Shown piece by piece: positions 19,691-44,082 of a DNA stretch of 64,000 nt (the stretch's first letter is position 1; every line of letters begins with the position of its first letter). The notes under the pieces were generated by a model that saw nothing but the letters and a program-made list of their open reading frames with translations, did not search any database and was not told the origin of the DNA. The stretch is from an uncultured Gammaproteobacteria bacterium (lineage in GTDB: Bacteria > Patescibacteriota > Patescibacteriia > Magasanikbacterales > UBA922). The translations under genes and the position numbers were made by a program. The stretch is taken from contig CAZQXB010000001.1 of the NCBI GenBank assembly GCA_964597575.1, positions 206,792 to 270,791 on the forward strand. The letters are read 5' to 3'.

Positions 19691-19715
19691 TACGCCCTTC
19701 CCTAGAGAGGGGGGC

Positions 19716-19744
19716 TTGCCAAAAACCGCTTCCCATGGTACAAT
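19716..19744 (+). promoter_or_regulatory. Sigma70-like promoter for secG (TTGCCA - 17 nt - TACAAT), divergent from the rpmE promoter.
   Basis: cTTGCCAaaaaccgcttcccatggTACAATtcg lies about 20 nt upstream of the secG ATG. Confidence 0.4.
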
Positions 19745-19766
19745 TCGTTCATATCAATTTTCTTCT

Positions 19767-19988: not shown

Positions 19989-20060
19989 TATTTTCTTAGC
20001 CGACACTAAAAAAACTCTGCAACCTTAATTTCGTAGCGAGTCACCCTCGCACGCTCTCTT

Positions 20061-22049: not shown

Positions 22050-22057
22050 AAACAAAA

Positions 22058-22141
22058 GGGCAAGTGGCGGAACTGGCAGACGCACTAGCTTCAGGTGCTA
22101 GCGGCCGCAAGGTCATGAGGGTTCAAGTCCCTCCTTGCCCA
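22058..22141 (+). tRNA. tRNA-Leu (anticodon CAG) with a long variable arm.
   Basis: Acceptor stem GGGCAAG/CTTGCCC. Anticodon stem CTAGC/GCTAG with loop TTCAGGT. T-arm GGGTTCAAGTCCC. Discriminator A. CCA is not encoded. Confidence 0.85.
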
Positions 22142-22217
22142 CACAAGATTATTTATATCTTTATTTTAATGTGAGAAGTACCACCGAGGTACCTCTTGCT
22201 CTGTATTTATTATTGGT

Positions 22218-24140: not shown

Positions 24141-24172
24141 TAGAGGTCGTTCTCAGTATTAGAACTCTTTTT

Positions 24173-24391
24173 ATGAAGCGTTTCTCTCGTATCAAACAGG
24201 GCGCCATTCTTGGGGGTGTGTGCACAGGACTTGCCGAGTACACAGGCATTGATGTGATGATTATTCGCATTATTACCGTGATCTTGCTTTTGGGAACAGG
24301 ATTTTTTCCGGTTGGTCTTGCGTACATTCTTGTCATCCTTCTTGTGCCGTACGAATCAGATAAAGACAGAAATGTAGTGTCTGATCAGTAA
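24173..24391 (+). CDS. PspC-domain membrane protein.
   Basis: L.R....IGGVCGGLAEY.G.D...IR has the PspC N-terminal consensus, followed by a TM helix. Confidence 0.65.
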   Translation: MKRFSRIKQGAILGGVCTGLAEYTGIDVMIIRIITVILLLGTGFFPVGLAYILVILLVPYESDKDRNVVSDQ

Positions 24392-24414
24392 AGAGGTAGA
24401 ATGAAAGATATCCA

Positions 24415-24446
24415 AAACGCCCCAAAGAGGGGTGTTTTGTTTTTTA
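24415..24446 (+). terminator. Rho-independent terminator after the PspC-domain gene.
   Basis: ACGCCCC-aaaga-GGGGTGT hairpin followed by TTTGTTTTTT. Confidence 0.5.
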
Positions 24447-24447
24447 C

Positions 24448-24476
24448 TTGCTTCAGAAAATAGAGTGTACTACAAT
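24448..24476 (+). promoter_or_regulatory. Sigma70-like promoter for trpS (TTGCTT - 17 nt - TACAAT).
   Basis: aCTTGCTTcagaaaatagagtgtacTACAATagg lies about 20 nt before the trpS ATG. Confidence 0.4.
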
Positions 24477-24495
24477 AGGCCTACATTCTTTATTT

Positions 24496-25479
24496 ATGCC
24501 GAAACCAGTCATTTTGTCCGGAATTCAGCCAACGGGAAATTTCCATATTGGAAATTATTTAGGTGCGGTTAAAAATTGGGTAGAACTTCAAAATAGCGGA
24601 ACATACGAGATGTTTATCTTTATTCCTGATCTCCACTCTCTCACAGGGGATCTTGGTGTAGAAGACCGTCGGAAGTATGTACAGACAGCTGCGGTTGAAC
24701 TCCTCGCCGCAGGAATTGATCCGCAAAAAACAACTCTTTTTGTACAATCCCATGTTCCAGAACATGCTGAACTCGGCTGGATTTTAGGGTGTACAACTCC
24801 GGTTGCTGAACTTGAACGCATGACACAGTTTAAAGATAAGTCAGAGCGTCAAGATAAAAACATTAACACCGGACTTTTAACGTACCCTGTGCTTCAAGCA
24901 GCCGATATTTTGCTGTATCACGGTACGGTTGTGCCGGTTGGGCAAGATCAGGTGCAGCACGTAGAGCTTACCCGAGATATTGCGCGGTGGTTTAATAATC
25001 GATTTGGAGAATATTTCGTTGAACCGAAACATCTTTTGTCTGAAGTACCAAAGGTGATGAGCTTACTTGAGCCCGAGAAAAAGATGAGTAAGAGTAAAGG
25101 GGAGGGGCATGTTATTAATTTAGTTGATACCCCAGAGATTATTCAGGCGAAATTGAAAAAAGCGGTTACGGCGACAACGGGTGGCGGTGAAGCTCCAGGG
25201 GTGATAAATTTACTATCATTACTTCATCATTTTGGAAAAGAAACCGTGTACACAGAATTTGTTCAAGCAGAATCGGATGGTTCAATTCGTTACGGGGATT
25301 TAAAAGCTGCAGTTGGGGAGGCCATTGCTGATTCGTTTGAAGCGTTCCGTACTCGTCGGGCAGAGCTTTTGGCAGATGAGAAAAAAGTCATTCAAATTTT
25401 AGAAGAAGGAAGAGTAAAAGCGAGTGCTGTGGCACAGAAAACAATACAAGAAGTGCGGCAAAGGGTAGGGTTACGGTAG
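24496..25479 (+). CDS. trpS: Tryptophanyl-tRNA synthetase.
   Basis: ILSGIQPTGNFHIGNYLGA (HIGH region, TrpRS-type) and KMSKS (KMSKSKGE). The start was set at MPKPVIL. Confidence 0.9.
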   Translation: MPKPVILSGIQPTGNFHIGNYLGAVKNWVELQNSGTYEMFIFIPDLHSLTGDLGVEDRRKYVQTAAVELLAAGIDPQKTTLFVQSHVPEHAELGWILGCTTPVAELERMTQFKDKSERQDKNINTGLLTYPVLQAADILLYHGTVVPVGQDQVQHVELTRDIARWFNNRFGEYFVEPKHLLSEVPKVMSLLEPEKKMSKSKGEGHVINLVDTPEIIQAKLKKAVTATTGGGEAPGVINLLSLLHHFGKETVYTEFVQAESDGSIRYGDLKAAVGEAIADSFEAFRTRRAELLADEKKVIQILEEGRVKASAVAQKTIQEVRQRVGLR

Positions 25480-25482
25480 GAT

Positions 25483-25510
25483 TAAAAAACGGCATTCATG
25501 CCGTTTTTTA
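25483..25510 (+). terminator. Rho-independent terminator after trpS.
   Basis: AAAACGGCA-ttca-TGCCGTTTTTT perfect hairpin with a T-tract. Confidence 0.6.
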
Positions 25511-25537
25511 ATCCCGAACCTTCTTTAGGGGAGGTTC

Positions 25538-25567
25538 TTGACAAATGCAATTAAGTTGCACTATAAT
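25538..25567 (+). promoter_or_regulatory. Sigma70-like promoter (TTGACA - 18 nt - TATAAT) upstream of the YibE/F-like gene and gap.
   Basis: tcTTGACAaatgcaattaagttgcacTATAATaga is followed by a leader of about 120 nt containing a CAAACG/CGTTTG hairpin. Confidence 0.45.
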
Positions 25568-25691
25568 AGACAGGCAAACGATATCTGTCGTTTGGGTATG
25601 TACACCAGGTACTGAGGTGCCGCAAAAAAAGTCTAGGGATAGGCTTTTTTTGTTTGGCTTGGTACTATGGAAGTATCAACCTATCGTATAT

Positions 25692-26825
25692 ATGCTCCAC
25701 TTTATTTCCCGTTTTTTCCTTCTTTTGGCAATTTTTCTTTCTGGATTTTCTTTTTTCCTCACTCCTTCAGTCTTGGCTGAGGAAGAAAGTTCGCTTGAAC
25801 CCATTCCGCTTAAAGACGAATTTTTTCGTGCCCGGGTGAGTGAGGTGATAGGTGAAAATACAGGAAATGATGGAGTAGGGGAAATAACGGTTCAAGAGGT
25901 TCGAATTGTGATAACCAAAGGGGAAGAAAATGGGAAAGAGGTGATTTTATCCTACGAAGTACCTCAAACCCAAAGTTCAAAGCTTCTGAAAAAAGGATCA
26001 GAGCTTATTTTGGGAAAAGCGATTATCGGTGGGGAGACAACGTACTATATCAGCGATGTTTATCGACTACATGCAGTCTATTGGTTTTTACTTTTGTTTG
26101 CTCTCCTTACCTTTGTGGCGGCGCGAGGTCGGGGAATGATGGCATTTGTCGGTCTACTTCTTAGCATTGCCGCGATTCTTTTCGTCATGATTCCTCTTCT
26201 GGTGCGAGGGTATAACCCGCTTCTCGTGTGTTTCGGGGTATCTGCACTTATTTCGTTTGCTACTATTTTTGTGGCACATGGATTTAAAAAACAAACACGG
26301 GTGGCAGCCCTCGCTACTATGATGACAGTCGGGCTTTCTCTTGGCCTTTCGTATCTTGCGGTCATTGGCACAAAGTTAGCAGGTCTTGGTACAGAAGAAG
26401 CATTTTTTTTAGGGGCGGCGGGCACTGGTCTTACCGATTTGCGAGGTCTTCTTATGGGGGCACTGGTTATCGGAACCCTTGGCGTGCTTGATGACGTCAC
26501 CACTGCTCAGGCAGCCACCGTGCATGAAATTGCAGAAGCGAATTCAACCTATTCTTGGAAGGAATTATATACGCGCGGTCTCCGGGTTGGCAGAGAGCAT
26601 ATTATTTCGCTCGTCAACACGCTGGTTTTGGCGTATACTGGAACAGCCTTGCCACTTCTTCTTTTGTTTCATGTGTACGAGCGCCCGTTGTGGGTAGTCG
26701 TCAATAGTGAGCTTGTGACGGAAGAAGTGATTCGGATGCTCGTCGGAAGCGCGACCCTTATGGTTGCCGTTCCACTGACAACCCTCCTTGCGGCTTTTGT
26801 TTTTGGAAGAAAACCTTCTGTTTAA
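25692..26825 (+). CDS. YibE/F-family integral membrane protein (N-terminal signal plus soluble domain, then a multi-TM domain).
   Basis: The start was set at MLHFISRFFLLLAIFLSG (a signal-like segment downstream of the predicted promoter). The multi-TM core and GLRGLLMGALVIGTLGVLDDV motif match my recollection of the YibE/F fold. Confidence 0.6.
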   Translation: MLHFISRFFLLLAIFLSGFSFFLTPSVLAEEESSLEPIPLKDEFFRARVSEVIGENTGNDGVGEITVQEVRIVITKGEENGKEVILSYEVPQTQSSKLLKKGSELILGKAIIGGETTYYISDVYRLHAVYWFLLLFALLTFVAARGRGMMAFVGLLLSIAAILFVMIPLLVRGYNPLLVCFGVSALISFATIFVAHGFKKQTRVAALATMMTVGLSLGLSYLAVIGTKLAGLGTEEAFFLGAAGTGLTDLRGLLMGALVIGTLGVLDDVTTAQAATVHEIAEANSTYSWKELYTRGLRVGREHIISLVNTLVLAYTGTALPLLLLFHVYERPLWVVVNSELVTEEVIRMLVGSATLMVAVPLTTLLAAFVFGRKPSV

Positions 26826-26829
26826 TTCT

Positions 26830-27834
26830 ATGTTTCGTATGAAAAAAATTCGCATCGCAATTAACGGATTTGGCCGTATTGGTCGTCATGCGCTTCGGGC
26901 AAGTCGATCGCATAAGGGGCTTGAGGTTGTGGCAATTAACGATCTGACGGACACCAAGACGTTGGCGCATCTTTTAGAATTTGATACGGCTTATCCCCCT
27001 ATGGGAGAAGCAATTTCCTTTGATGATCATGCTATTATCGTTGGTAAGCAAAAAATAAAAGCCTTTGCAGAAAAAGATCCAGCGAAGCTTCCGTGGAAAG
27101 AGTTGAAGGTTGATGTCGTGCTTGAGTGCACGGGTCGATTTACCGATACCGTCGGCGCCGGCCTTCATATACAAGCAGGAGCCAAAAAGGTACTCCTATC
27201 GGCACCAGGAAAGGATGATATGCAAACCTTGGTCTTAGGGGTAAATGATGTGGGATACAAGGGGGATGGGGTGGTAAACAACGCTTCGTGTACGACAAAC
27301 TGTGCGGCACCCATTATGCGTGTGCTTGAATCAGCTTTTGGTGTAGAAAAGGCAATGCTCACAACGGTACACTCGTATACGGCCGATCAAAATTTACAAG
27401 ACGGTCCGCATCGTGATTTGCGACGCGCTCGGGCGGCTGCACAAAATATTGTACCAACGTCGACCGGTGCTGCTGTCGCAGTCACGGAAACGATCCCTTC
27501 TCTCAAAGAGAAGTTTGACGGTTTGGCAATTCGTGTGCCAACAATTACGGTTTCGCTTACAGACATTACCGCCGTTTTAAAAAAGTCCGTCACGATTGAG
27601 CAGATTAATGAAGCATTTACTAAAGCATCAAAGACAAGTTTGAAAGGAATTCTTGCTGTGACTGAAAAAGAGCTTGTCTCGAGTGATTTTATCGGTTCTT
27701 CGTACTCTGTTACGGTAGACCTTCCTCTCACCATGGTTGTGGGGGGTAATTTAGTAAAAGTTGTGGGCTGGTATGATAACGAGTGGGGATATGCCAATCG
27801 TTTGATCGAGATGGCTGAGGTGGTGGGGAAATAA
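26830..27834 (+). CDS. gap: Glyceraldehyde-3-phosphate dehydrogenase.
   Basis: IAINGFGRIGR (NAD-binding) and the active-site ASCTTNCAAP. Confidence 0.95.
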   Translation: MFRMKKIRIAINGFGRIGRHALRASRSHKGLEVVAINDLTDTKTLAHLLEFDTAYPPMGEAISFDDHAIIVGKQKIKAFAEKDPAKLPWKELKVDVVLECTGRFTDTVGAGLHIQAGAKKVLLSAPGKDDMQTLVLGVNDVGYKGDGVVNNASCTTNCAAPIMRVLESAFGVEKAMLTTVHSYTADQNLQDGPHRDLRRARAAAQNIVPTSTGAAVAVTETIPSLKEKFDGLAIRVPTITVSLTDITAVLKKSVTIEQINEAFTKASKTSLKGILAVTEKELVSSDFIGSSYSVTVDLPLTMVVGGNLVKVVGWYDNEWGYANRLIEMAEVVGK

Positions 27835-27836
27835 GT

Positions 27837-29075
27837 ATGAACAAAAAGGTTCTGCCTCAATCGATTCGTTCGGTTAAACATCTTCGTGGAAAGCGAATAT
27901 TTTTTCGCGTCGATGTTAATGTCCCTCTTTTATCGGGAAAAGTGGCTGACGATACTCGTCTCAGAGCCATACTTCCGACTCTCACCTGGCTTCAAAAAAA
28001 AGGTGCCATTATTTTTATTATCTCTCACCTTGGTCGCCCCGAAGGGCGTGCCGTCCCTTCCTTATCGCTTCGACCGGTAGCAATTCATCTTGAGATGCTT
28101 TTAGGAAAGCCAGTTAATTTCCTTAATACCAAAGATTGGTCAAAAGAAAATTTTGATTCAGCTGTAACAGAGGAAGATGTTCAATCGGCAAAGCCTGGGG
28201 ATATATTTTTGGCTGAAAATATTCGTTTTTCGAAAGAAGAAGAAAAGGGTGAGATAAATTTTGCCAAAAGAATAGCAAAGTTAGCTGATGTATATGTAAC
28301 AGACGCATTTGCCGCTGTCCATCGAAAAGATGTAAGTGTGGCGAAAGTTCCATTATACCTTCCTGCATACGCTGGTTTTCTTTTAGAAAAAGAAATAGTC
28401 GGACTTGAAACCTTGAACCAAAGCACAGCAGCTCCGTATGTGGCTTTGGTCGGAGGGATAAAGCTCGAAACAAAAATTCCTCTCATAAAAAAACTTCTTC
28501 GAGAAGCCGATGGGGTTCTTTTAGGGGGTGGCATTGTGAATACATGCCTCGTTGCTTTGGGATACAGTGTCGGTACTTCACTTTACGATAAAAATTTTGT
28601 TTCAGTCGCTAAAACTATTGCGCGCCATAAAAAAGTATTTCTCCCGATTGATCTTATCGTGGGCGATAAAAAGGGGGATAGGGTGCGCCATATTGATGTA
28701 CCTATGGAACCCACACGCCTTTGCTCCAAAAACGAGGCTATATTTGATATTGGTCCGAAAACCATCGCTGCGTATTCCACGCTTCTAAAAGATGCAAAGA
28801 GGGTGGTTTGGAATGGCGCAATGGGGTATTTCGAAATGCCGGTTTACGCACAAGGGACGCGTATGATCGCGCGCACTATTGGCCTTCTTCGAAAAAAACG
28901 TACATATACTGTTGTTGGTGGCGGGGAAACTGCGCAAGCGCTTGAACAAGTAGGGCACGCGAACGATGTGCGACTACTCTCAACCGGCGGAGGAGCCATG
29001 CTTTCGTATATTGCAGGTGAGAAACTTCCCGGCATTGAAGTGCTTCAGAAAAGAAAAAAAGAAACAAACAAGTAA
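27837..29075 (+). CDS. pgk: Phosphoglycerate kinase.
   Basis: RVDVNVPL N-terminal motif and full-length PGK domain order. The start lies 3 nt after the gap stop. Confidence 0.95.
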   Translation: MNKKVLPQSIRSVKHLRGKRIFFRVDVNVPLLSGKVADDTRLRAILPTLTWLQKKGAIIFIISHLGRPEGRAVPSLSLRPVAIHLEMLLGKPVNFLNTKDWSKENFDSAVTEEDVQSAKPGDIFLAENIRFSKEEEKGEINFAKRIAKLADVYVTDAFAAVHRKDVSVAKVPLYLPAYAGFLLEKEIVGLETLNQSTAAPYVALVGGIKLETKIPLIKKLLREADGVLLGGGIVNTCLVALGYSVGTSLYDKNFVSVAKTIARHKKVFLPIDLIVGDKKGDRVRHIDVPMEPTRLCSKNEAIFDIGPKTIAAYSTLLKDAKRVVWNGAMGYFEMPVYAQGTRMIARTIGLLRKKRTYTVVGGGETAQALEQVGHANDVRLLSTGGGAMLSYIAGEKLPGIEVLQKRKKETNK

Positions 29076-29131
29076 AAAGGTGCGTGTTGTGGTATACTGT
29101 AGGTACTTGTTTTCAACTTTATTTTTTTCGT

Positions 29132-29974
29132 ATGCCTGTCACACGTCCGGGAGGTCAAGGAGCTCCACTGCTCCACCATGTTCACCATGGAATTGTGGGT
29201 CATAATTTTGGTCGAAAAATTATTCTAACGTTAGTCGGTGTTCTACTTGCATACGGCATTGTTTTGTTTGGAACAATGATTCGTAACAACCTCCGTCAGT
29301 TTGAGGTGATTGGGTACGCTCCCCGACAAGAAAGAAGCATTCGAATCGAGTCTGAGGGTAAGGTGACGGTAAAGCCAGATATTGGTTTAACAACCATTGG
29401 CATGGTGGCTGAGGGTAAGACTGTGGCTGAAGCCCAAGAAAAGAATAGTAAAGTTATTACTGATTTAGTGACTAAAGCAAAGGCTTTGGGAATTGCTGAA
29501 GCGGATATCCAGACCGCAAATTATAATATTTATCCAAAATATCGCTATTCAGAAAAAGAAGGCCAGGTACTTGATGGATATCAGGTGAATCAAAGTGTCG
29601 CCGTAAAAATTCGTGATTTAACTAAGGCAAATAGCGTCATTGCCCTTGCTGGAGAAGTGGGAGCGAACACCGTAAGTGGGCTTGATTTTACAATTGATGA
29701 CCGTGATGCGTATGTCGATGCAGCTCGGAGGGTGGCCATGGAAAAATTAGGTGAAAAAGCCGCCATGCTTTCGGAAACCCTTGGGGTAGACTTAGTGAGC
29801 GTGGTATCCTATGATGAATATGAGCAGGGTCAAAACAACCCCTCACCCTTTTATCGTGCGTCAAACATTGCCGTTGAGATGGATGCTGCTGGCGGAATGA
29901 AGGCGTCAACTGGGGTTGAAACGGGAAGTACGGACGTTATTCTTCATATTGCTGTCGTATTCGAAATTCGCTAA
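29132..29974 (+). CDS. SIMPL/DUF541-domain protein (26-kDa periplasmic immunogenic protein family) with an N-terminal TM anchor.
   Basis: The domain layout and conserved stretches (GYQVNQSVAVKIRDL ... VSGLDFTIDD) fit SIMPL. The start was chosen at MPVTRPGG, downstream of a TGnTATACT element at 29088-29099. Confidence 0.65.
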   Translation: MPVTRPGGQGAPLLHHVHHGIVGHNFGRKIILTLVGVLLAYGIVLFGTMIRNNLRQFEVIGYAPRQERSIRIESEGKVTVKPDIGLTTIGMVAEGKTVAEAQEKNSKVITDLVTKAKALGIAEADIQTANYNIYPKYRYSEKEGQVLDGYQVNQSVAVKIRDLTKANSVIALAGEVGANTVSGLDFTIDDRDAYVDAARRVAMEKLGEKAAMLSETLGVDLVSVVSYDEYEQGQNNPSPFYRASNIAVEMDAAGGMKASTGVETGSTDVILHIAVVFEIR

Positions 29975-30004
29975 AAACAGTTTAAATTTTGATGTTTCGA
30001 TTGT

Positions 30005-33000
30005 ATGAGAGGTGAGTTTTTTGAGAAAGTTTTGGTGGGGTGCGCTATTGTCGTTTTCGGCAGCGTCTTTGCGTTCGGGGTAAACTCAACCCTTCGTGCT
30101 CAAACCGCATCATGCCCACTACAAACCTTACTTCCTTATAAAACCCCTCAAAGTTCCGCTGTCTACTACGTCTCAAAAGATTGTAAAAAAAGGCCAATTC
30201 GAAATCCTGCAGTTTACTTTTCTCACTTTTCCTCTTGGAGAGACGTTCGTGTAACGAGTCAAACCGTTTTGAATCGTATTCCCGATCATGAATTATCCTT
30301 TTTGCCCTGGGGACCGAGACGGGTTTATGAAAATGGATCCTTAGTAAAAACTGTCGACGACTCCCGAGTGTTTATTATTCTCGATGGAATTCGTCTGTAT
30401 CCGATTGAATCAGAATTCGCTTTTCGTTCTGTTTTGGGATACTCATTTGATCAGGTGGAGGATGTGACACGTAATGTCATTGACCGGTATATTGTTCAAT
30501 CGACCCCGATTGAATCTCTGGAGACCATCCCTCCTTTTCTGGTATTTAAGTACCCAAATGATGCGAAAGTGTACGCTCTTGAAAGAGATGGTGAGGATTT
30601 GGCGAAGCGGTATGTATCTTCTTTTGCTCAGATTCGTCAGAATAATTTTCGTGCAGATCGTATCGCTACAATCCCAACAACACGGACTTTTGTTGATTCG
30701 GTTGGGTCGGCGCCACCGGCGCGACCATTGCCGCAGCCAGCACCAGTACCTACACCAACACCTGTCCCTCCGCCTTCTCCTCTTGTTCAAATTGTACCTG
30801 TACCGGTCCCAGTACCAGTTCCCGTACCAGTTCCAACACCGGTACCGGGAGTCGTTCCTCCAGTCGTGCCACCGCCTGCAACTCCGCCACCTGTGGTTCC
30901 TCCTCCTGCAACCCCAACCCCAACTCCGGTACCCATCACGCCAAATCCACCACCACCTGCGCCAACTCCAAGCCCTTCGTCGGCCCTGTCAGCAGATCCA
31001 TCCCTTAGTGATGAATTTAATTCTGCCTCAACGCTCGGTAATTGGACGATGATGAACAACGACCTTCTTTCATCTGTAAATATTGGAACTACTGTTGCGG
31101 GGAGACTGACCATGGTTTCTGCGCCTATTGATCAAAATGGGTGGTATTCCGATCGGCAGGGCGCGTACATGTATAAAACTGTCTCTGGAAATTTTGTGGT
31201 GGAAATGTCTGGACGTGTGGGGAGAAACAGCGACATGAATTCGGTGCCTTCTGGAACATTTAAGGAGGCGGGTATCATTGTCCGAAACCCCTCTGGCCCA
31301 GTTCGTCAAAGCGGAAGTTTGACTACCGCTGTTGCTCCGGCAGGGCAGCAGAATTGGGTCATGTATAATATTGGAAAACAAATTTTTCAGTATGGACGTC
31401 AGGCGAAAAGTACCCGATCAGGAAGCCCAGATACGCTTTCCACGCTTTACTACACCGACACTCCTTCTGGAGTGCGAAACGGGAGAATTCGGGTTTGTCG
31501 CGTTGGAACAACGATATATTTCTACCACATGATGGAGAACGAGTCGACGTGGGTAGAGGAGGCGTTTGAGAGCACGACTGGGGTTGATGGTAACGGTCGT
31601 AATTTAGCAACACCTGGAATTAGTGGTAATGCAGTAGGGACTCCGATCCGTTTTGTTCGGAGTGATTTTCCAACGACACTTCAAGTAGGGCTCATTGCTG
31701 GAAACTGGGATAGTCCGTATGACGGGAGGTCCGAGTTTGATTATGTGCGCATTGCACCAGTAAGCACTCAAAGTGATTGTACCCGAGATATGCCCGCTGC
31801 TGGAACGACCACCCCACCCCCTCCACCACCAGCACCAACATCCCTCCCTGCGATTAGTGGCTTTGGTGACGAGTTTGCAGACGCAGCGACCTTATCACAG
31901 TGGTCAAACAGACAAACTGTTGAAGGGGGAGCTTCGCAAATTTCTACTTGGAATATTAATACCACAGCAGCTGGTGCCATGGTGCTTACTCCATCTGCTA
32001 ATGTTGGGTGGTTTAATTCTTTGGTCGGTCCATTTATTTATAAACAAATTTCCGGTGATTTCGTTGTTACAACGCAAGTTTTAGCAAGAAGTGTCGCTTC
32101 TGCCAACCAGGCTCCATCGCAAGTTTCGAATGCGGCTGGGCTTTTGGTTCGAAATCCAGCGAGCGCAAGCGGGATTCAGAACTGGGTGACGAATAATGTG
32201 GGAACACACAATGGGGCGGTAGTCGGAACGACAAATCTGAGTACTGTTAATAGCTTAACGAATTCAGTGACAGCGACGGCCGGTCAATTTTCCGTTGCTC
32301 TCCGTATTTGTCGCATCGGTTCAACTATTAGAACCTACATCTCTCAGGATAATGAGCAAAGCTGGACACTCACAAACACTATTACCCGATCTGATTTTCC
32401 GACCACCCTTCAGGTGGGTATGATGGCTGTGGCTGCAAGTTCGGTTGCAGACATTCGCGCAGAATTTGCCTATATTCGTTCCGCTGTTCCTTCATCTGTA
32501 AGTGACTGTACAGAAACAATTGATCCTGCGATTTCAACTGGCGGTACGACACCAACCCCGCCACCTCCGCCACCTGCTCCACCTACAACCCCGCCACCTC
32601 CGCCACCTGCTTCAGTTTCTGCGATTAGTGGTTTTGGCGATGAGTTTGCAGACGCTGGTACCTTGTCCCAGTGGTCGAACAGACAAACCGTAGAAGGTTC
32701 AGTGTCTCAACTTACCACATGGGACATCAACAACAGTGCCTCGGGTGCGATGGCGCTCACTCCTTCACAAGGGAATATTCCTTGGTATAACTCTTCTGTT
32801 GGTCCATTTATCTACAAACAAATTTCTGGAGATTTCGTGGTATCAACACAGGTATTGGCGCGAAGTTTGAATTCACCAAGTCAGGGGCCAACCCAGCAGT
32901 ACAATGCAGCTGGTTTGTTGGTGCGTACTCCTGCAAGTGCTGCAGGTGTTCAGAACTGGGTGACGAATAATGTGGGTAATGTGAATGGTGTTATTGGAGT

Positions 33001-34105
33001 CGTAAATATTAACACATCAAATTCCGTATCAGGGGCAATTGTAAGTCAAGACTCTTCATTCTCTGCTGCTCTCCGTATTTGTCGCATCGGTTCAACTATT
33101 AGAACCTACATCTCTCAGGATAATGAGCAAAGCTGGACACTCACAAACACTATTACCCGATCTGATTTTCCGACCACCCTTCAGGTGGGTATGATGGCTG
33201 TGGCTGCAAGCAGCGGAAATGATTTGCGCGCTGAATTTTCCTATATTCGAGCCGGCTCCCCGACATCTGTAACAGACTGTACCGGAACTTTAGGTACTGC
33301 TGTGGCTTCCTCTCCATCGCCTGCGCCTACACCTCCTCCACCGGCACCCCCACCTCCACCACCAGCCAACCCACCACCTCCACCCCCACCACCTCCATCA
33401 GGTCCAGCCGCAATTTCTGGGTTTAGTGATGAGTTTAATAGCAATAGTACGATTGGGAATTGGACAAGCCGTCAAGTAGCTGAGGGTAGTGCAAATCAGA
33501 TTGCAACCTGGAACATCAATTCAACGGTTTCGGGCAACATGGTACTCATACCGGCAACAAATAACATCGCTTGGTATAATGCGCTCGTGGGGCCATTTAT
33601 CTATAAAAATGTTACAGGAAACTTTGTCGTGTCTCTTCGGCTCAATGCGCATAGTTTGAGTAACTCCGCAGCAAGTCCCGGTCAGATATACAATGCCGGG
33701 GGGCTTTTAGTGAGAAATCCATCTTCGGCCGGAAGTGCTACACAAAATTGGATAGAAATGGCTATTGGAAATCACGAGACAGCAAACGGTTTGGTAACAG
33801 TAAACACGACAAATTCAGCTACGCCGAATCTTAGTCCCATCGCCGGAGCAACGAACACAAGTGTTCGCATATGTCGTATTGGTTCAACATTTACTTTGTA
33901 CACCTCAACAGATAACGATCAGACGTGGAATTTGAGCGCAACGTATAACCGGTTCGATCTTCCGACAACGCTTCAGGTGGGTATGGTTGTTGTGGCGGCA
34001 AATGCTTCTGGAAGTCCAGATGTGCAGGTTGATTTTGATTATATCCGAGGGGTTGTGCCAACCTCATCTTCCGACTGTACGGCAGTCATTGGAGTCCAAT
34101 CATAA
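30005..34105 (+). CDS. Giant secreted protein B (1366 aa), paralogue of A. It has a signal peptide, the shared N-terminal module (about 230 aa) and a (PV)n/Pro-rich linker, then four tandem ConA-like (DUF1349/GH43-C-like) beta-jellyroll repeats each ending in ...SDCT.
   Basis: The N-terminal region aligns by eye with protein A (CPLxxLxPYKTxxSSAVxYxSxDC ... LPWGPRRVxExGSLxKTVDDxRxF ... LVFKYP ... ADRIAT). The repeats begin (L/I)SxFxDEF and end (E/D)FxYIRxxxPxSxSDCT. Confidence 0.85.
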   Translation: MRGEFFEKVLVGCAIVVFGSVFAFGVNSTLRAQTASCPLQTLLPYKTPQSSAVYYVSKDCKKRPIRNPAVYFSHFSSWRDVRVTSQTVLNRIPDHELSFLPWGPRRVYENGSLVKTVDDSRVFIILDGIRLYPIESEFAFRSVLGYSFDQVEDVTRNVIDRYIVQSTPIESLETIPPFLVFKYPNDAKVYALERDGEDLAKRYVSSFAQIRQNNFRADRIATIPTTRTFVDSVGSAPPARPLPQPAPVPTPTPVPPPSPLVQIVPVPVPVPVPVPVPTPVPGVVPPVVPPPATPPPVVPPPATPTPTPVPITPNPPPPAPTPSPSSALSADPSLSDEFNSASTLGNWTMMNNDLLSSVNIGTTVAGRLTMVSAPIDQNGWYSDRQGAYMYKTVSGNFVVEMSGRVGRNSDMNSVPSGTFKEAGIIVRNPSGPVRQSGSLTTAVAPAGQQNWVMYNIGKQIFQYGRQAKSTRSGSPDTLSTLYYTDTPSGVRNGRIRVCRVGTTIYFYHMMENESTWVEEAFESTTGVDGNGRNLATPGISGNAVGTPIRFVRSDFPTTLQVGLIAGNWDSPYDGRSEFDYVRIAPVSTQSDCTRDMPAAGTTTPPPPPPAPTSLPAISGFGDEFADAATLSQWSNRQTVEGGASQISTWNINTTAAGAMVLTPSANVGWFNSLVGPFIYKQISGDFVVTTQVLARSVASANQAPSQVSNAAGLLVRNPASASGIQNWVTNNVGTHNGAVVGTTNLSTVNSLTNSVTATAGQFSVALRICRIGSTIRTYISQDNEQSWTLTNTITRSDFPTTLQVGMMAVAASSVADIRAEFAYIRSAVPSSVSDCTETIDPAISTGGTTPTPPPPPPAPPTTPPPPPPASVSAISGFGDEFADAGTLSQWSNRQTVEGSVSQLTTWDINNSASGAMALTPSQGNIPWYNSSVGPFIYKQISGDFVVSTQVLARSLNSPSQGPTQQYNAAGLLVRTPASAAGVQNWVTNNVGNVNGVIGVVNINTSNSVSGAIVSQDSSFSAALRICRIGSTIRTYISQDNEQSWTLTNTITRSDFPTTLQVGMMAVAASSGNDLRAEFSYIRAGSPTSVTDCTGTLGTAVASSPSPAPTPPPPAPPPPPPANPPPPPPPPPSGPAAISGFSDEFNSNSTIGNWTSRQVAEGSANQIATWNINSTVSGNMVLIPATNNIAWYNALVGPFIYKNVTGNFVVSLRLNAHSLSNSAASPGQIYNAGGLLVRNPSSAGSATQNWIEMAIGNHETANGLVTVNTTNSATPNLSPIAGATNTSVRICRIGSTFTLYTSTDNDQTWNLSATYNRFDLPTTLQVGMVVVAANASGSPDVQVDFDYIRGVVPTSSSDCTAVIGVQS
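32299..32440. repeat. First copy of a perfect 142-bp direct repeat inside protein B (repeat units 2 and 3 of the jellyroll array).
   Basis: ctccgtatttgtcgcatcggttcaactattagaacctacatctctcagg...atgatggctgtggctgcaag is identical to 33071-33212. Confidence 0.8.
33071..33212. repeat. Second copy of the perfect 142-bp direct repeat inside protein B.
   Basis: Identical to 32299-32440. The flanks are about 85% identical. Confidence 0.8.
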
Positions 34106-34130
34106 AAGACAGAAGATAAAGATAAGAAAA

Positions 34131-34158
34131 AAGGTGTTTCCCACCTTTTTTCTTTTTA
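34131..34158 (+). terminator. Rho-independent terminator after giant protein B.
   Basis: AAGGTG-tttcc-CACCTT hairpin followed by TTTTTCTTTTT. Confidence 0.5.
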
Positions 34159-34189
34159 TGTTATGATATGTTCAATAATATTCATATCT

Positions 34190-35434
34190 ATGGAAAAAAT
34201 AAAACGCATTGCAGCTCGTGAAATTCTTGATTCTCGTGGAAATCCAACCCTCGAAACAACTCTTTTTTTGGAAAACGGAGGTCGGGTTGCAGCCTCAGTG
34301 CCAAGTGGAGCGTCGACCGGTTCCTATGAAGCGCACGAGTTGCGTGATGGGGGTAAACGATATGGGGGAAAAGGGGTGCAAAAGGCAGTAGATCATGTGA
34401 ATCGGGTGATCGGACCAAAAATTATTGGTTTTTCTGTAACCGACCAGGCAGGTATTGATCAGGAACTACTCCACCTTGACGGGACGAAGGAAAAGAAGAG
34501 GCTCGGTGCCAATGCGCTTTTGTCGGTATCTCTTGCTGCGGCTCGGGGCGGAGCTCTTGCTGAAGGGCTACCACTGTATCGGTATTTACGCGATAAATCT
34601 GGTTTAAGGGAGCGAGGGTGGCGCATGCCACAGCCCATGATGAATGTGATTAATGGTGGCCGACACGCGACGAATGGTCTTTCGGTTCAAGAATTTATGA
34701 TTCTGCCAAAACATCGGAATGTGGTGGAGCAGGTGAGAATTGGTTCAGAAGTATTCCATGCGTTGTCGCGTCTGCTTGAGAAAAAACGATATGCTACTGG
34801 GGTTGGTGATGAAGGAGGGTTTGCGCCGGCATTTCCCGAAAATGAATCTGCGTTAAAGTTTCTCATGACTGCAGTGAAGGAGGCCGGCTATACTCCTGGT
34901 GTGCATGTGGTTTTTGCTCTTGATGTGGCGGCGTCTGAGTTCCATAGCCGACGCGGATATTTGTTTGAAGGGAAGCGTCCTATCTCTTCCGAAAAAATGC
35001 TTCAGGCCTTTTCTGTTTGGATGAAGAAATATCCTTTGGTTTCCATTGAAGATCCGTTTGCTGAGGATGATTGGTCTCCGTGGGTCGAAATGACGAAAAA
35101 ATATGGTTCGCGCCTTGCGATTGTTGGGGATGACCTGTTTGTTACGAATATCGATCGTTTAGGGGAGGGAATAAAACAAGGTGCTGCAAATACTATTTTA
35201 ATCAAACCAAATCAAATTGGAACATTAAGCGAAACATTTGCGACGATTCGACAGGCAAAATCGGCAGGGTATCGTGTCATTGTATCTCATCGTTCTGGGG
35301 AGACTGCTGATACGTTTATTGCGGATTTGGCGGTAGCGGTGCATGCGGACGGCTTAAAAGCCGGTTCACTGTCTCGGAGTGAGCGGGTAGAAAAGTATAA
35401 CCGACTGATGCAAATCTCCCTCGAAGTAGGTTAA
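34190..35434 (+). CDS. eno: Enolase (phosphopyruvate hydratase).
   Basis: MEKIKRIAAREILDSRGNPTLE... is a canonical enolase N-terminus, and the protein is full-length. The start was set at MEKIK. Confidence 0.95.
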   Translation: MEKIKRIAAREILDSRGNPTLETTLFLENGGRVAASVPSGASTGSYEAHELRDGGKRYGGKGVQKAVDHVNRVIGPKIIGFSVTDQAGIDQELLHLDGTKEKKRLGANALLSVSLAAARGGALAEGLPLYRYLRDKSGLRERGWRMPQPMMNVINGGRHATNGLSVQEFMILPKHRNVVEQVRIGSEVFHALSRLLEKKRYATGVGDEGGFAPAFPENESALKFLMTAVKEAGYTPGVHVVFALDVAASEFHSRRGYLFEGKRPISSEKMLQAFSVWMKKYPLVSIEDPFAEDDWSPWVEMTKKYGSRLAIVGDDLFVTNIDRLGEGIKQGAANTILIKPNQIGTLSETFATIRQAKSAGYRVIVSHRSGETADTFIADLAVAVHADGLKAGSLSRSERVEKYNRLMQISLEVG

Positions 35435-35518
35435 GAGGGTTTATGCACATACCTGTTAGGGGTATGTGTGCTATACTATATAAGCATTAGCTTCTTGATT
35501 TTTTTAGTAGATTTTTCT

Positions 35519-38500
35519 ATGGTTTTATTTCGGAAACCTTTTTTGCATATTTCATGGAGTCGTGTTGCGGCTCTGATATTTTTTCTTTCTATAGCGGGGG
35601 TTCTTTTTTTTGCACGCACTCTCCCTGCACTTGTTGCTGTAAATACATGGCCATTTGATACTGCTGGGGATTATACATACAATACTTCCCTTGTCGATGT
35701 AACCGGTGGAGTTGCTACACTTGTAGCAATAACCGGGGGTACCACGACCACAAATCATAATGATAACGGAAGCACAGAATTTGGTGGGGGGACTTCAACA
35801 AGCATCCAGTGGGTGAGTGCCTCAAGTTCACTCCGGATATCGTCGGGAGTAAGTGGTACTTTTACTTCGGTTGTTATTGATGCCGGAGTAACAACCACCT
35901 GGCAAACATTGGCGTGGACACCTTTTGCCCCTTACGGAAAAGAACTTGTTACAAGTACTGCGGAAACTCAGTATAGTTTTGGTAACTTTACAAATACCGG
36001 CGCGATAGCAGCATACTGGCGTTTGAATGAATCGAGTTGGAATGGTACGACAAACGAAGTTCAAAACGCTGTTTCAACGACCTTGCATGGCTCGCGTCGT
36101 GGGGGTGCGACGACAAGCGGTACGGCCCAATTTGGGCGTTCCGGGTCCTTTCCTTTAGCAAATACGTCGTATGTTCATGTAACAACTACAAACTTTTTGG
36201 CAGATTCTCAGTCGGGTACGATTATGGCGTGGATTTTTCCAACAAGTACCGGTGGGGGAACATTCCGTCATTTTTTTGCCTCAACTGATGAGTCGACATC
36301 CGATGGTAACGGCAATCGCGTTGTTTTGGGAATGCTTGATTCTGCAAATCAGTTATTATTCTACCATGCAGATGGTTCTGGTTTTGATTCAAATATCGGA
36401 AATACGGTGATGGCAGCAAATGAGTGGCATCATGTTGCTATTACTAATAGCGGGGCAGCAAACGGCTATCGTATGTATGTTGATGGGGTTCTGCAAACAC
36501 TAACTACTTTCGGTGGGGGAAATTCCGGTGATTGGTTTGCTGATGCAAATGGTTCTGGGGCCACAAATAGAGATAACATCACAATTGGTGGTATACGTCA
36601 TATTACACCTGACCTTTTGTTTGATGGTCTTGTTGATGAGTTGGTGATATTTTCACAAGAATTATCCACCTCAACGATTCGTGACCTTTACCGCCGTGGA
36701 GCACAGCGCTTGAGTTTTCAGGTTCGTTCCTGTGATGATAGTGCATGCAGCGGGGAAACGTTTACAGGCCCAGATGGCACGGCTGCGAGTTACTATACAG
36801 AATCTACCACCACAACGGTTGGCCTACCGTCGAAGAGTTTAATCACTCTCCCAGCTAATCGATATTTTCAGTATCAGACACTATTTAACACAACTTCAAC
36901 CGAACTTTCTCCTGGACTTCTTAGTGTTACAACTACAGGTTTTGCCACAACAACCTACTCCACAACAAGTCCAACGATTATAAATAATACGGGTTTCAGT
37001 TTTAGAAATATTTCTGCGTTTACACATTCACTCGGCGCTGGGAATGCTGGTACGGTGGAGTATCAGGTAGCTGTTGGGAACACCTCTACATTCTATTACT
37101 GGAATGGGAGCAATTGGGTTACAGCAAGCGCCGGATATCCAACGCACACCAATACGGTTTCAGAAGTAAATTCAAACATTATTCAGCTTGATACTGATGT
37201 CGGTGTTGGCACCTTCTACTTTCGCGCCTTTCTCGCTTCGAACGGAGCGCAGCAGGTTCAGCTTTCAGAGGTTGCGATCATGACAACGTCAACCATTTCT
37301 TTCGCGGCAAGCAGTGGTTCAGCAAGTGAAGGAAGTGGTACGAGTACGATTGTTGTTCAGCTTGATGAAGTTTCTTCGAGTACGATGACGGTTAATTATG
37401 CGGTTACCGGAGGAACAGCAACTGCGACAAGTGATTATGTTCTTGCAAGTGGTACTTCTACTATTGCGGCTGGAAGCACAACAACAAGTATTAGTATTCA
37501 GCTTGTCGATGACTCTGTTATCGACGGGAGTGAGACTGTCATCCTCACACTTACAAATGCGATCGGAGGGCTTCTTGGGTCAACCACAACATTTACCTTA
37601 ACCATTACCGATAATGATACTGCAGGGGTGACACTCAATCCTTCTTCTGTTTCTGTAACAGAAGGTGGTTCGGATACTTCGTATACTATTGTTTTGAATA
37701 CTCAGCCATCGAGTACTGTAAGTATTACACTTGCCACCTCAACAGGCGATATTTCTTTGTCGACTACCTCAATTACATTTACTACAAGTACTTGGAATTC
37801 TGCGCAGACGATTACGGTTACTCCTGTAAATGATAGTGATGTTGAGGGTACACACTCTGATACTATCACCCATACCGCAAGTTCAACCGATTCGAATTAT
37901 CATGCCATTTCGATTTCTAATATGTCGGTGAGTGTTACTGATGATGATGCATCATCTTCTTCTGGAGGCGGAGGCGGAGGCGGAGGTGGTGGTTCATTTA
38001 TTCCTACGACACCAGCACCTCAGGGCTTTGGCGGAACTGGTAATGGGGAAATTCGAGCAGGGGAGGGAGCGGCGACAAACCTCCCTGTTTCCGAAGGTTC
38101 CTTCATTGATGCTACTAATCGAGCGGTAACAATATCGTTTGCTGTGGAAGGTGCGACTCGCATGGCGCTTTCAAACCAACCTGATTTTGCGCTGGCTACT
38201 CAAGAGCCGTATCGTCCGAGCGTCATTTGGGACGTGTGTGGGAATTCGACCGTATGTCCTGAGGGTATTTATACTCTGTATGCACGATTTTATAACAGCT
38301 ACGGAGTTTCTGGAAATGTTATTTCCCGCCAAATTCGATATCGACCAACTTCAAGCTCGGTTACCCTATCACCTAGCTTAGTTCGACTTTTGAAGTCTGC
38401 TGATGACCCTAAAGTGTTCGAGGTTATTAATGGTGAAAAGCGCTGGCTTGTAAACGAACAGGCGTTTCTTTCGCGAGGGTATTCATGGGGGGCGATTGAG

Positions 38501-38836
38501 GTGGTTCCCTCAAGTGTTCTTCGGGCGTTGCCAGATGCGGGCCAAATTTCAACTCCTGCATTATTACCACCTACAAATAGGTCAATTTCACCCGCGTTCC
38601 GTTTCTCTTCATATCTTTCGTTTGGCTCGCAGGGAGCGGCCGTTCGAAGCTTGCAGGTTCTTCTTGTGGATTTAGGGTACTTCCCTAGAACCGTTCAGCC
38701 AAATGGTGTATTTGGTCCAACTACCCGTGGGGCCGTACAGGCGTTTCAGCGTGCTAACGGTCTTACTCCAATTGGTGTTGTTGGTCCGCAGACTCGCGCG
38801 CTCCTCAACGGAATTTTAAGTGCAAGAGGGGAATAG
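35519..38836 (+). CDS. Giant cell-envelope protein C with an N-terminal TM anchor and a LamG-like (ConA-like) jellyroll domain. Calx-beta domains, a poly-Gly linker, a domain of unknown fold and a C-terminal peptidoglycan-binding (PG_binding_1-like) domain follow.
   Basis: LamG_3 signature ...WHHVAITNSGAANGYRMYVDGVLQ...DELVIFSQELS. Calx-beta signatures (TISFAASSGSASEGSGTSTIVVQLDEVSSSTMTVNYAVTGGTATATSDYVLASGT...; ITDNDTAGV...). G(n) run. C-terminal ...GAAVRSLQVLLVDLGYFP...GVFGPTTRGAVQAFQRANGLTPIGVVGPQTRALL. Confidence 0.8.
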   Translation: MVLFRKPFLHISWSRVAALIFFLSIAGVLFFARTLPALVAVNTWPFDTAGDYTYNTSLVDVTGGVATLVAITGGTTTTNHNDNGSTEFGGGTSTSIQWVSASSSLRISSGVSGTFTSVVIDAGVTTTWQTLAWTPFAPYGKELVTSTAETQYSFGNFTNTGAIAAYWRLNESSWNGTTNEVQNAVSTTLHGSRRGGATTSGTAQFGRSGSFPLANTSYVHVTTTNFLADSQSGTIMAWIFPTSTGGGTFRHFFASTDESTSDGNGNRVVLGMLDSANQLLFYHADGSGFDSNIGNTVMAANEWHHVAITNSGAANGYRMYVDGVLQTLTTFGGGNSGDWFADANGSGATNRDNITIGGIRHITPDLLFDGLVDELVIFSQELSTSTIRDLYRRGAQRLSFQVRSCDDSACSGETFTGPDGTAASYYTESTTTTVGLPSKSLITLPANRYFQYQTLFNTTSTELSPGLLSVTTTGFATTTYSTTSPTIINNTGFSFRNISAFTHSLGAGNAGTVEYQVAVGNTSTFYYWNGSNWVTASAGYPTHTNTVSEVNSNIIQLDTDVGVGTFYFRAFLASNGAQQVQLSEVAIMTTSTISFAASSGSASEGSGTSTIVVQLDEVSSSTMTVNYAVTGGTATATSDYVLASGTSTIAAGSTTTSISIQLVDDSVIDGSETVILTLTNAIGGLLGSTTTFTLTITDNDTAGVTLNPSSVSVTEGGSDTSYTIVLNTQPSSTVSITLATSTGDISLSTTSITFTTSTWNSAQTITVTPVNDSDVEGTHSDTITHTASSTDSNYHAISISNMSVSVTDDDASSSSGGGGGGGGGGSFIPTTPAPQGFGGTGNGEIRAGEGAATNLPVSEGSFIDATNRAVTISFAVEGATRMALSNQPDFALATQEPYRPSVIWDVCGNSTVCPEGIYTLYARFYNSYGVSGNVISRQIRYRPTSSSVTLSPSLVRLLKSADDPKVFEVINGEKRWLVNEQAFLSRGYSWGAIEVVPSSVLRALPDAGQISTPALLPPTNRSISPAFRFSSYLSFGSQGAAVRSLQVLLVDLGYFPRTVQPNGVFGPTTRGAVQAFQRANGLTPIGVVGPQTRALLNGILSARGE

Positions 38837-38852
38837 CTGAATGTTTTATCGC

Positions 38853-38888
38853 AACAGAAAAGAACTCTATATAGAGTTCTTTTCTGTT
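38853..38888. terminator. Long perfect palindrome / bidirectional terminator candidate after protein C.
   Basis: AACAGAAAAGAACTCTAT|ATAGAGTTCTTTTCTGTT (18-bp arms). Confidence 0.5.
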
Positions 38889-38938
38889 GCCGGATGATAT
38901 GCTTGTACGTTATACTGTGGCATAGTCCCTATAAAATT

Positions 38939-40507
38939 ATGAATACCCTTTTTCCTCGAAAAACTGCCCTCCTTATTTTGGATGGTTTTGGTCTTGCCCC
39001 ATTTGATCGCCCAGGAAATGCTATTCGCCCGGATACTGCTCCTCATATTTTTGAGTATAAGAAAAAGTACACGGCCACGGAATTAAATACCACTGGGGCA
39101 ACAGTGGGTCTCTTTCCAAATCAAAAGGGAAATTCCGAGGCCGGACATTTAACTATCGGGACTGGTCGAATTGTAAAACAAGATTTGGTACGAATTTCTG
39201 AAGCGATTAGTAATGGTACTTTTTTTAAGAATGAAGCCTTTAAACAGGCTACTCATCACGCCAAAAAATATCATACGGCGGCACACATTTTCGCCCTCCT
39301 TACTGATGGAAACAGTGCTCATGCATACCCAGAACATATTTTTGCCACACTTGAGTATCTTCGCCGCGAAGAAATTCGTGAAGTGTACCTGCATCTTTTT
39401 ACCGATGGTCGAGACAGCTCTCCGCATAATGCTCTGGTGTTTCTTCAGGCGCTTCGGGGTCATATGGTTGGGGGGGAGAAAATCGCGACAATGATGGGTC
39501 GCTACTATGGTATGGATCGAAATAAGACATGGTCGCGTACGAAAGAAGCTTATGAAGCTATTGTTTTTGGTAAAGGGGGTCATGTTGCCAAAAGTGCCGA
39601 GGAGGCGATAACTCTTGCCTACAGTCGAGGTGAGACCGACGAGTATATTACCCCAACCGTTATTGTTGATGACGAATCAAAACCTATCGGAACCGTAGAT
39701 GATAACGATGTTATTTTTTTTACAAATGCACGCAGCGATCGGGCAAGACAATTGACTAAAGCCTTTGTGCAAGAGGATTTTCAGAAACTAAATCCAGGAG
39801 CTTTTCGACGCTCTCGGGTACCAAAAAATATCCGTTTTGTTGCCATGACTGATTTCGGACCGGATTTGCCAGGAGTGTTCACTGCTTTTCCAAGTCCAGA
39901 TGTACCAAATGCTTTGGCTAAAGCAATTGGAGAGAGCTATCGCCAATTATTTATTTCTGAAACAGAAAAGTATGCTCATGTAACATACTTTATTAATGGT
40001 GGGTACGCTGAACCAATAAACGGGGAAAAACGAGAATTGGTTGCCTCGTCTCCAATTTTATCGTATGCAGATTTACCGGAAATGAATGCGGCAGTGCTTG
40101 CTGATCGAATTGCAAGTGCATTTAAAGAAGATGAATATGATTTTGTGTGTACTAATTTTCCTAATGCTGATATGGTGGGGCATACGGGAAATCTTTCAGC
40201 AGCCGAAACTGCGGTTCGGGCCTTGGATAACGCCGTGGCTTTGGTGGTTGAAACGACTCTCTCGCTCGGTGGTCAAGTAATGATTGTTGCCGACCATGGA
40301 AATGCTGAAGAGATGATTAATCTGGCCACTGGGGATATTATGACTGAACACACCAGAAACCTGGTTCCTTGTATTATTATCGGGAAAGGGTTTGAGAAGA
40401 TGCCGATAAAACCCGCAGGAACATTGGCTGATGTTGCTCCAACCTTGCTTCACATGATGGGACTTCCTCAACCCGAGGAAATGACAGGAAAATCATTATT
40501 ATTGTAA
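38939..40507 (+). CDS. gpmI: 2,3-bisphosphoglycerate-independent phosphoglycerate mutase (iPGM), copy 1.
   Basis: ALLILDGFG ... NSEAGHLTIGTGRIV ... iPGM phosphatase and transferase domain motifs. The start was set at MNTLFPRK. Confidence 0.9.
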   Translation: MNTLFPRKTALLILDGFGLAPFDRPGNAIRPDTAPHIFEYKKKYTATELNTTGATVGLFPNQKGNSEAGHLTIGTGRIVKQDLVRISEAISNGTFFKNEAFKQATHHAKKYHTAAHIFALLTDGNSAHAYPEHIFATLEYLRREEIREVYLHLFTDGRDSSPHNALVFLQALRGHMVGGEKIATMMGRYYGMDRNKTWSRTKEAYEAIVFGKGGHVAKSAEEAITLAYSRGETDEYITPTVIVDDESKPIGTVDDNDVIFFTNARSDRARQLTKAFVQEDFQKLNPGAFRRSRVPKNIRFVAMTDFGPDLPGVFTAFPSPDVPNALAKAIGESYRQLFISETEKYAHVTYFINGGYAEPINGEKRELVASSPILSYADLPEMNAAVLADRIASAFKEDEYDFVCTNFPNADMVGHTGNLSAAETAVRALDNAVALVVETTLSLGGQVMIVADHGNAEEMINLATGDIMTEHTRNLVPCIIIGKGFEKMPIKPAGTLADVAPTLLHMMGLPQPEEMTGKSLLL

Positions 40508-43867: not shown

Positions 43868-44082
43868 TAACGCACCCTCCTAAAGACGCGTTTCGCGTCT
43901 TTACCCGCACCTGCCCGAATTGGCCGGTGAAGGTAGAAAACGCCAAACCCTAACTCGAGAGTATAGAAGATTATTCTTTTTTTGTCAATAGAGCCAAATA
44001 TACCGCTTTGTGTATTAAAAAAGTGCTGAATAAAGCAAAAAACTTGCCTTTTATCGCTCTTTTTTATACAATAATAAATACT

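Follow-up and report, generated by a model that had tools for sequence, protein, structure and literature searches.

A 144-bp identical block in two domain repeats of a giant protein gene from an uncultured bacterium, read as recent gene conversion

The window analysed here is a stretch of 64 kb of DNA from an uncultured bacterium (contig CAZQXB010000001.1 of assembly GCA_964597575.1). It contains a gene, here called protein B, that carries four units of the domain family DUF1349, numbered U1 to U4. Two of these, U2 and U3, differ at about one position in three over most of their length, and yet they share a block of 144 bp that is identical to the last base. The question is how this block came to be there.

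The block is very probably a short tract of non-reciprocal recombination, or gene conversion, between the two paralogous units. Comparison with relatives shows that one unit had 144 bp overwritten, in register, with the corresponding sequence of the other. This happened after the lineage of the window had parted from its nearest known relative, and the length did not change. Recent intragenic gene conversion was also the original prediction for this locus, and it stands. The duplication is old, the flanks group by orthology but the block groups by genome, and synonymous sites that are saturated in the flanks show zero change in the block.

An identical block in divergent flanks

The extent of the repeat was determined by script on the window. 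The maximal exact direct repeat measures 144 bp, is in frame, and has an offset of 771 between its copies. No other exact repeat in the window is as long; the next ones measure 60, 28 and 26 bp. The block holds 47 whole codons (ALRICRIGSTIRTYISQDNEQSWTLTNTITRSDFPTTLQVGMMAVAA), preceded by one base and followed by two. On the 3' side positions 32440 and 33211 are already mismatched. The two copies align column for column: the offset is 771 at both ends of the block and downstream, and the indel closest to the block is on the upstream side, with an offset of 774 there. Between U2 and U3 the block is a replacement in register, without gain or loss of sequence.

An earlier description of this place had a perfect repeat of 142 bp. 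A perfect direct repeat does exist, but it spans 144 bp (32296-32439 and 33067-33210). The intervals 32299-32440 and 33071-33212 that were proposed for it are not identical to each other; the second is off by one base and the last position is mismatched. The peptide reported for the repeat matches the encoded residues, except that the codon for its final S differs between the copies (AGT and AGC). The background identity of U2 and U3 had been put at roughly 75-85% at the DNA level, which is too high. It is 74% over the 657 aligned nucleotides when the block is included, and 66.7% (342/513) outside it. U2 and U3 are still the most similar pair of units, with 74% amino-acid identity.

When the 171 differences were shuffled 200,000 times, the longest identical run that arose was 51 nt (mean 18), and none reached 144. 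Codons give a sharper view. Among degenerate codons for the same amino acid in both units, 59 of 111 differ synonymously outside the block, compared to 0 of 44 inside. Even if the amino-acid identity is granted, the probability of this zero is about 3e-15. By the Nei-Gojobori method, the flanks have a proportion of synonymous differences (pS) of 0.674, a synonymous distance (dS) of 1.72, which is saturated, and a non-synonymous distance (dN) of 0.26. In the block, none of the 34.3 synonymous and 106.7 non-synonymous sites differs. Its identity is far beyond chance, and also far beyond what conservation of the protein would give.

Three other lineages with the four-unit gene were found: P0001 (locus L001), P0002 (L002 and L003) and P0003 (L004), below also P1, P2 and P3. 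Scans of genomes and metagenomes gave one locus each, L005 (CAZYEQ010000005.1) and L006; these are 99.8% identical in nucleotides and both belong to the P0003 population. In an exhaustive profile-free search of representatives the domain turned up in 1042 clusters (E<=1e-3), and only two of these contain four-unit orthologues. A word-indexed search with U2 alone gave one distant match and missed the known orthologues. U1 to U4 are present in the window gene, in P1, P2 and P3, and in the full-length L005 and L006 assemblies, always as four units.

Over the four lineages, every U3 has the motif QQYNAAG and every U2 has Q[LIV]SNAAG. Because these unit-specific motifs are shared, the duplication predates the four lineages. 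The saturated synonymous sites, and the presence of both units in the three other lineages, also show the duplication that gave U2 and U3 to be an old one.

Neighbour-joining trees with codon bootstrap were made separately for block and flanks, with W standing for the window. In the flank tree W_U3 groups with P1_U3, P2_U2 with P3_U2, and P2_U3 with P3_U3, all at 100%; W_U2 with W_U3 gets 0%. The position of W_U2 among the U2 orthologues is weakly resolved there (37%). In the block tree it is W_U2 and W_U3 that group at 100%, and P1_U2 groups with P1_U3 at 57%. Trees that follow orthology in the flanks and genome in the block are the standard signature by which gene conversion is recognised in sequences. 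Because of this incongruence, the conversion is dated to after the split between W and P1.

P1 has something similar. Its best U2/U3 segment (L001 2617-2708 versus 3388-3479) is identical at 88 of 92 positions and is nested in the region of the window's block; no match to it arose in 20,000 codon permutations. Since W and P1 are only 81.5% identical in those columns, the P1 tract is also later than the split, and independent of the one in the window. It has decayed and is the older of the two. P2 and P3 have no significant U2/U3 identity tract, and in the block region their U2 and U3 are 69.5% and 63.1% identical respectively, no better than in their flanks. Conversion has recurred: two of the four lineages have a tract in this part of the unit. 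The suggestion of a recombination hotspot gains from the independent 92-nt tract in the nearest relative, but so far it rests on two events.

Other explanations for the block

The block could be a recombination anchor. In one form of this idea it is recurrently renewed, and cells use it to swap variable segments and to gain or drop lectin-like units in frame. This is distinctly unlikely, and the sole hint of it is the tract at the same place in two of the four lineages. The most divergent segment, of about 90 bp and bracketed by the identical runs of 28 and 144 bp, is probably surface-exposed. If the idea were true, it would mean population-level variation of a protein that binds a host or a substrate, in an organism whose genome is small and which makes giant surface proteins.

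In the other form, selection maintains the block for in-frame deletion, duplication and reshuffling of units, as programmed surface variation. With an offset of 771 bp, or 257 codons, every crossover would be in frame. The two longest runs of identity do bracket the most divergent segment, conversion did recur at one place in two lineages, and Helicobacter pylori cagY provides a precedent (PMC2194252). Against this, all lineages and assemblies have four units, and P2 and P3 have no identity block, so this gene does not carry it as a conserved feature. Taken alone, the 28-bp run is not significant. The only length polymorphism seen is that of a (TP)n linker between L005 and L006, so it is in linkers and not in domain units. 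No other protein segment of the family is as conserved as the block, which is sufficient to explain why pairing would start there. A maintained anchor is very unlikely.

Length or phase variation, which had also been suggested, finds no support in these data. Apart from the constant number of units, only 144 of the 771 bp per unit are identical, and the rest are 67% identical. A U2/U3 crossover could not switch the gene off either, because it would remain in frame. It should be said that k-mers shorter than the repeat cannot reveal copy-number variants in the window's own population. A perfect direct repeat of 144 bp could now support the loss or gain of a unit in frame, although there is no evidence of this.

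Assembly or polishing could also make such a block, by assigning reads of one unit to the other, by falsely homogenising the consensus, or by joining strains into a chimera. A repeat of such a size is known to be hazardous, the gene collection has no record of exactly this protein, and the support for the repeat comes from assembled contigs. Contigs of the same strain are nevertheless available from Logan, which we take to be built from a de Bruijn graph with k=31. They were found by exact look-up of the enolase and SIMPL genes from their likely true starts. L008, which makes up the final 13,194 bp of a 66.9-kb contig (SRR13355622), is 100% identical to window positions 19132-32325. It ends exactly 30 nt into the first copy of the repeat, and its terminal 30-mer occurs at 32296 and at 33067, although the 31-mer is unique. 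L007 (SRR13355620; three samples gave this contig) matches 33181-38880, or 5.7 kb, at 100% identity. It starts exactly 30 nt before the end of the second copy, and its first 30-mer is found at 32410 and 33181.

Contigs that end at both outer edges are what is expected of a true exact repeat with these boundaries. At the level of reads they confirm where the repeat begins and ends, and they speak against an identity introduced by polishing. The warning that the locus is an assembly hazard is borne out by the same contigs, which stop exactly at the repeat edges. A collapse would have removed the 771-bp interval; it would not have left two copies with different flanks. The contigs come from two runs and match the window without a single difference, and the separate assembly of the nearest relative has a similar, decayed tract. 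An artefact is highly improbable.

L007 also ends on its other side, at 38880, which is intergenic, after the LamG-type giant gene and before the first gene for iPGM. There is no repeat of at least 20 bp within the window at that place; the end could be due to a strain variant or to a repeat elsewhere in the genome.

Zero synonymous change is also what one would expect if the nucleotides themselves were under selection, with the block being a functional DNA or RNA element in duplicate. This might be an RNA structure, an internal regulatory site, or the template and variable repeats of a diversity-generating retroelement, which are of similar length. The orthologous blocks however differ from that of the window at 22-29% of positions and are saturated at synonymous sites, so there is no constraint across lineages. 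As an RNA the block folds no better than shuffled sequence (z-score -0.09), and there is no Rfam match in the protein B gene; the only Rfam matches in the window are RNase P RNA and two tRNAs. A retroelement was considered and rejected: a Pfam scan of the 34 open reading frames (ORFs) of at least 170 aa in the whole window gave no reverse transcriptase domain, and the copies have no adenine-biased mismatches, or indeed any mismatches. The copies are moreover in-frame homologous parts of paralogous domains, and the homology continues on both sides. Selection on nucleotides has only the slimmest chance of being the explanation.

That U2 and U3 arose by a recent duplication of the whole unit, followed by very fast divergence everywhere except in the block, has a probability close to nil: they are the most similar pair of units, but the divergence of their flanks is mostly synonymous, saturated (pS 0.67) and not driven by amino-acid change, both have orthologues with unit-specific signatures in three other lineages, and the flank trees place W_U3 with P1_U3 at 100%.

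Gene conversion is then the preferred reading, and a few things weigh against it. The contig breaks confirm only the two outer edges, and not the interior of the block base by base. The order of the parts, A-R-B-R-C, rests on the window's own assembly. The direction of transfer depends on five informative sites. The databases searched held only four lineages, which makes the 'recurrent hotspot' a matter of two events. The recombination pathway, with RecA-type pairing, is drawn from general knowledge.

Recombination between repeats, here and elsewhere

The conversion may have started when the direct repeats paired by homology in the course of repair or replication, by RecA-type strand invasion or by template switching, with correction of the heteroduplex afterwards. 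Neither RecA nor an equivalent was found by Pfam among the same 34 ORFs of the window. Pairing would begin where the paralogues are most alike, which is in the four core beta-strands, and there a replacement would be functionally neutral. The 5' edge of the tract lies at the most divergent segment, where mismatches may have blocked further extension of the heteroduplex. Alternatively, selection may have removed conversions that erased unit-specific surface residues.

The transfer would have been from U3 as donor to U2 as recipient. Sites that can tell the donor were defined on P2 and P3; there are five in the block, and upstream they form a noisy mosaic. Three of these five nucleotides are U3-like, and so are the amino-acid states TLTN, TTL and GMM. 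On this weak evidence, U3 was probably the donor. U4 takes no part in the conversion. The result is a fold core that is locally homogenised, next to variable segments that remain distinct.

Ectopic gene conversion between bacterial paralogues is known from the duplicated tuf genes of Salmonella and from rRNA operons. There too, short non-reciprocal tracts erase synonymous divergence between copies on one chromosome, with edges where identity falls. Those are however separate genes that are nearly identical along their full length, and here the partners are adjacent domains of a single ORF that are otherwise about 67% identical. The conversion in protein B is also rare and patchy, and not continuous.

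Homogenisation has been described for about 30% of repeat proteins, and was mostly attributed to recent duplication (Persi, Wolf and Koonin 2016, PMC5120217). In that study a few proteins combine high homogenisation with low variability in repeat number, and for these other mechanisms such as gene conversion can be inferred. Protein B resembles this class: its paralogous repeats are closer to each other than to the orthologous ones, the number of repeats is constant, and two related orthologues are homogenised. It differs in that only a 144-bp sub-segment of a 657-bp unit is affected, and not whole repeats. The detection here was also by DNA and synonymous sites instead of protein trees, and it concerns an uncultured bacterium and four lineages.

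The cagY gene of H. pylori has very many near-identical repeats, with size variants observed within hosts (Aras et al. 2003, PMC2194252). Like protein B, which is predicted to be a surface protein, it has direct DNA repeats inside a surface-protein gene, and all products of recombination are in frame. Protein B however has one 144-bp pair, no observed size variant and a conserved number of units. In yeast, paralogues of the FLO adhesins form chimaeric alleles by ectopic recombination, with consequences for the phenotype (Christiaens et al. 2012, PMC3512402). These too are genes for lectin-like proteins of the cell surface, and segments pass from one paralogue to another. In yeast the exchange is between genes of a eukaryote, while in protein B it is bacterial, takes place within one gene, and is known here from sequence alone. 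The present case is an ordinary further instance of a known process, with no new mechanism.

What it adds is that partial gene conversion, below the size of a domain, acts on neighbouring domains of one giant, presumably secreted protein from a bacterial lineage without cultured members. It can recur at one segment of core strands while the variable segments next to it stay distinct. There are also practical consequences. Such tracts break assemblies made with short k-mers exactly at their edges, which leads to truncated 'proteins' in catalogues, like the 773-aa one on L008 and the 307-aa one on L007. Trees of units that are built across a conversion tract will mislead the annotation and evolutionary analysis of repeat proteins.

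The host gene and its surroundings

The features of the gene are collected in Table 1.

Table 1. Protein B, its units and the U2/U3 segments discussed in the text, in window coordinates.
Feature	Position	Strand	Description
Host gene (protein B)	30005-34105	+	1366 aa; ORF and translation; four DUF1349 (ConA-like beta-sandwich) units
Unit 1 (U1)	30995-31783	+	divergent DUF1349 unit with insertions; 33-39% amino-acid identity to U2-U4
Unit 2 (U2)	31856-32512	+	219 aa; modelled with AlphaFold2
28-bp exact run	32175-32202 = 32949-32976	+	motif QNWVTNNVG; immediately 5' of the hypervariable segment
Most divergent segment of U2 versus U3	32203-32295	+	45-50% nucleotide identity, one codon indel; adjoins 5' edge of block
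Conversion tract, U2 copy	32296-32439	+	144 bp, 100% identical to 33067-33210; unit residues 148-194
Linker U2-U3	32513-32626	+	Pro/Thr-rich
Unit 3 (U3)	32627-33283	+	219 aa
Most divergent segment of U3	32977-33066	+	counterpart of 32203-32295
Conversion tract, U3 copy	33067-33210	+	donor, as weakly indicated
Unit 4 (U4)	33416-34081	+	50-51% amino-acid identity to U2 and U3; 63% nucleotide identity in block region

Protein B begins with a hydrophobic segment, followed by a module of about 200 aa and then by the four units, with Pro/Thr-rich linkers between them. The hydrophobic stretch (MRGEFFEKVLVGCAIVVFGSVFAFG...) is read as a predicted signal or anchor, and protein B looks like a secreted or surface protein of many domains. 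The N-terminal module (30107-30700, residues 35-230 or so) is not matched by any Pfam family. Many giant proteins that are otherwise different begin with a version of it, at 40-61% identity (P0004-P0018, 14-21% query coverage), and it may be a shared module for anchoring or export.

Pfam assigns three stretches of the protein to DUF1349 (PF07081), of the ConA-like lectin/glucanase clan, with 102.3 bits where the cutoff is 32.4. U2 was modelled with AlphaFold2 on a 16-sequence alignment of units; the model has a mean confidence (pLDDT) of 84.9 and a predicted template modelling score (pTM) of 0.85. Its top Foldseek matches in the PDB are 3o12 (E 4.7e-9, TM 0.68/0.79) and 3mep, followed by the C-terminal beta-sandwich of GH43 xylosidases and by legume lectins. 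A search of the PDB by sequence alone gave no match. The units had been described as jellyroll repeats, and with DUF1349 as the family and 3o12 and 3mep as model matches this description was a good one.

In the model, the block corresponds to four consecutive core beta-strands (E146-154, E157-163, E171-177 and E184-193). These strands are the most confident part, with pLDDT of 92-96. In the alignment of units, conservation of the protein is highest in the block, which holds many of the invariant residues of the family: R150, R153, G155, W170, R178, D180, Q186, V187 and G188. The divergent segment of U2 falls on strands E122-131 and E139-142 plus loops, where the confidence of the model is lower.

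The solved structures 3o12 (yeast YJL217W, or REE1) and 3mep (ECA2234) belong to the same Pfam family and are the best structural matches to U2, although the sequence identity is only 14-16%. These solved members have a single domain and are presumably cytoplasmic. Protein B has four units on Pro/Thr linkers behind a predicted signal or anchor.

The neighbours of protein B are, in order, GAPDH, PGK and SIMPL on one side, and on the other enolase, a giant protein with LamG, Calx-beta and peptidoglycan-binding domains, and two iPGM paralogues. Synteny holds where the contigs reach: L002 has the full neighbourhood, L001 has enolase downstream, and L005 and L006 have the upstream genes. The four-unit gene is located directly upstream of enolase in the window (29132-35434), in L001 and in L002. 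The JGI name for P0001 is 'regulation of enolase protein 1', which goes back to REE1, a DUF1349 protein of yeast. This is probably a mere transfer of names, given that the protein looks secreted; the adjacency is conserved though.

The relatives also differ in details. P0001, the nearest orthologue (L001 52-4350), has an extra Big_7 domain (PF17957) between the N-terminal module and U1, which the window gene does not have. The L005 and L006 genes (4105-8205 and 4141-8205) differ by 12 residues in the (TP)n linker upstream of U1.

The window has more to offer than protein B. The two iPGM paralogues are in tandem, 4 bp apart (38894-40507 and 40512-42083, both +), and share an exact match of 22 bp (39957/41497). 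L002 has one complete iPGM (522 aa), and then a gene that is cut by the end of the contig. A second giant protein of 1693 aa (9880-14961, +) ends in a DUF1349 domain, and its gene has no exact match of at least 20 bp to that of protein B. The 60-bp exact repeat (60389/60479) is part of an imperfect tandem array of 21, 42 and 48 nt at 60386-60550. This array is a low-complexity linker in a 1441-aa protein with fn3 and CarboxypepD_reg domains (ORF 59032-63357, -).

An ORF of 177 aa (55963-56496, -) is spurious, as it overlaps a bacterial class A RNase P RNA gene (55995-56430, -). The window further has RNase J, a strong orientation of genes on one strand, a positive GC skew throughout, and giant surface proteins among housekeeping genes. 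It is doubtful that gene content like this fits the Gammaproteobacteria label under which L005 is recorded. Finally, the valyl-tRNA synthetase (44008-47244, +, 1078 aa) has a full His_Phos_1 domain at residues 502-656, between its catalytic and anticodon-binding parts, which is an unusual fusion or insertion.

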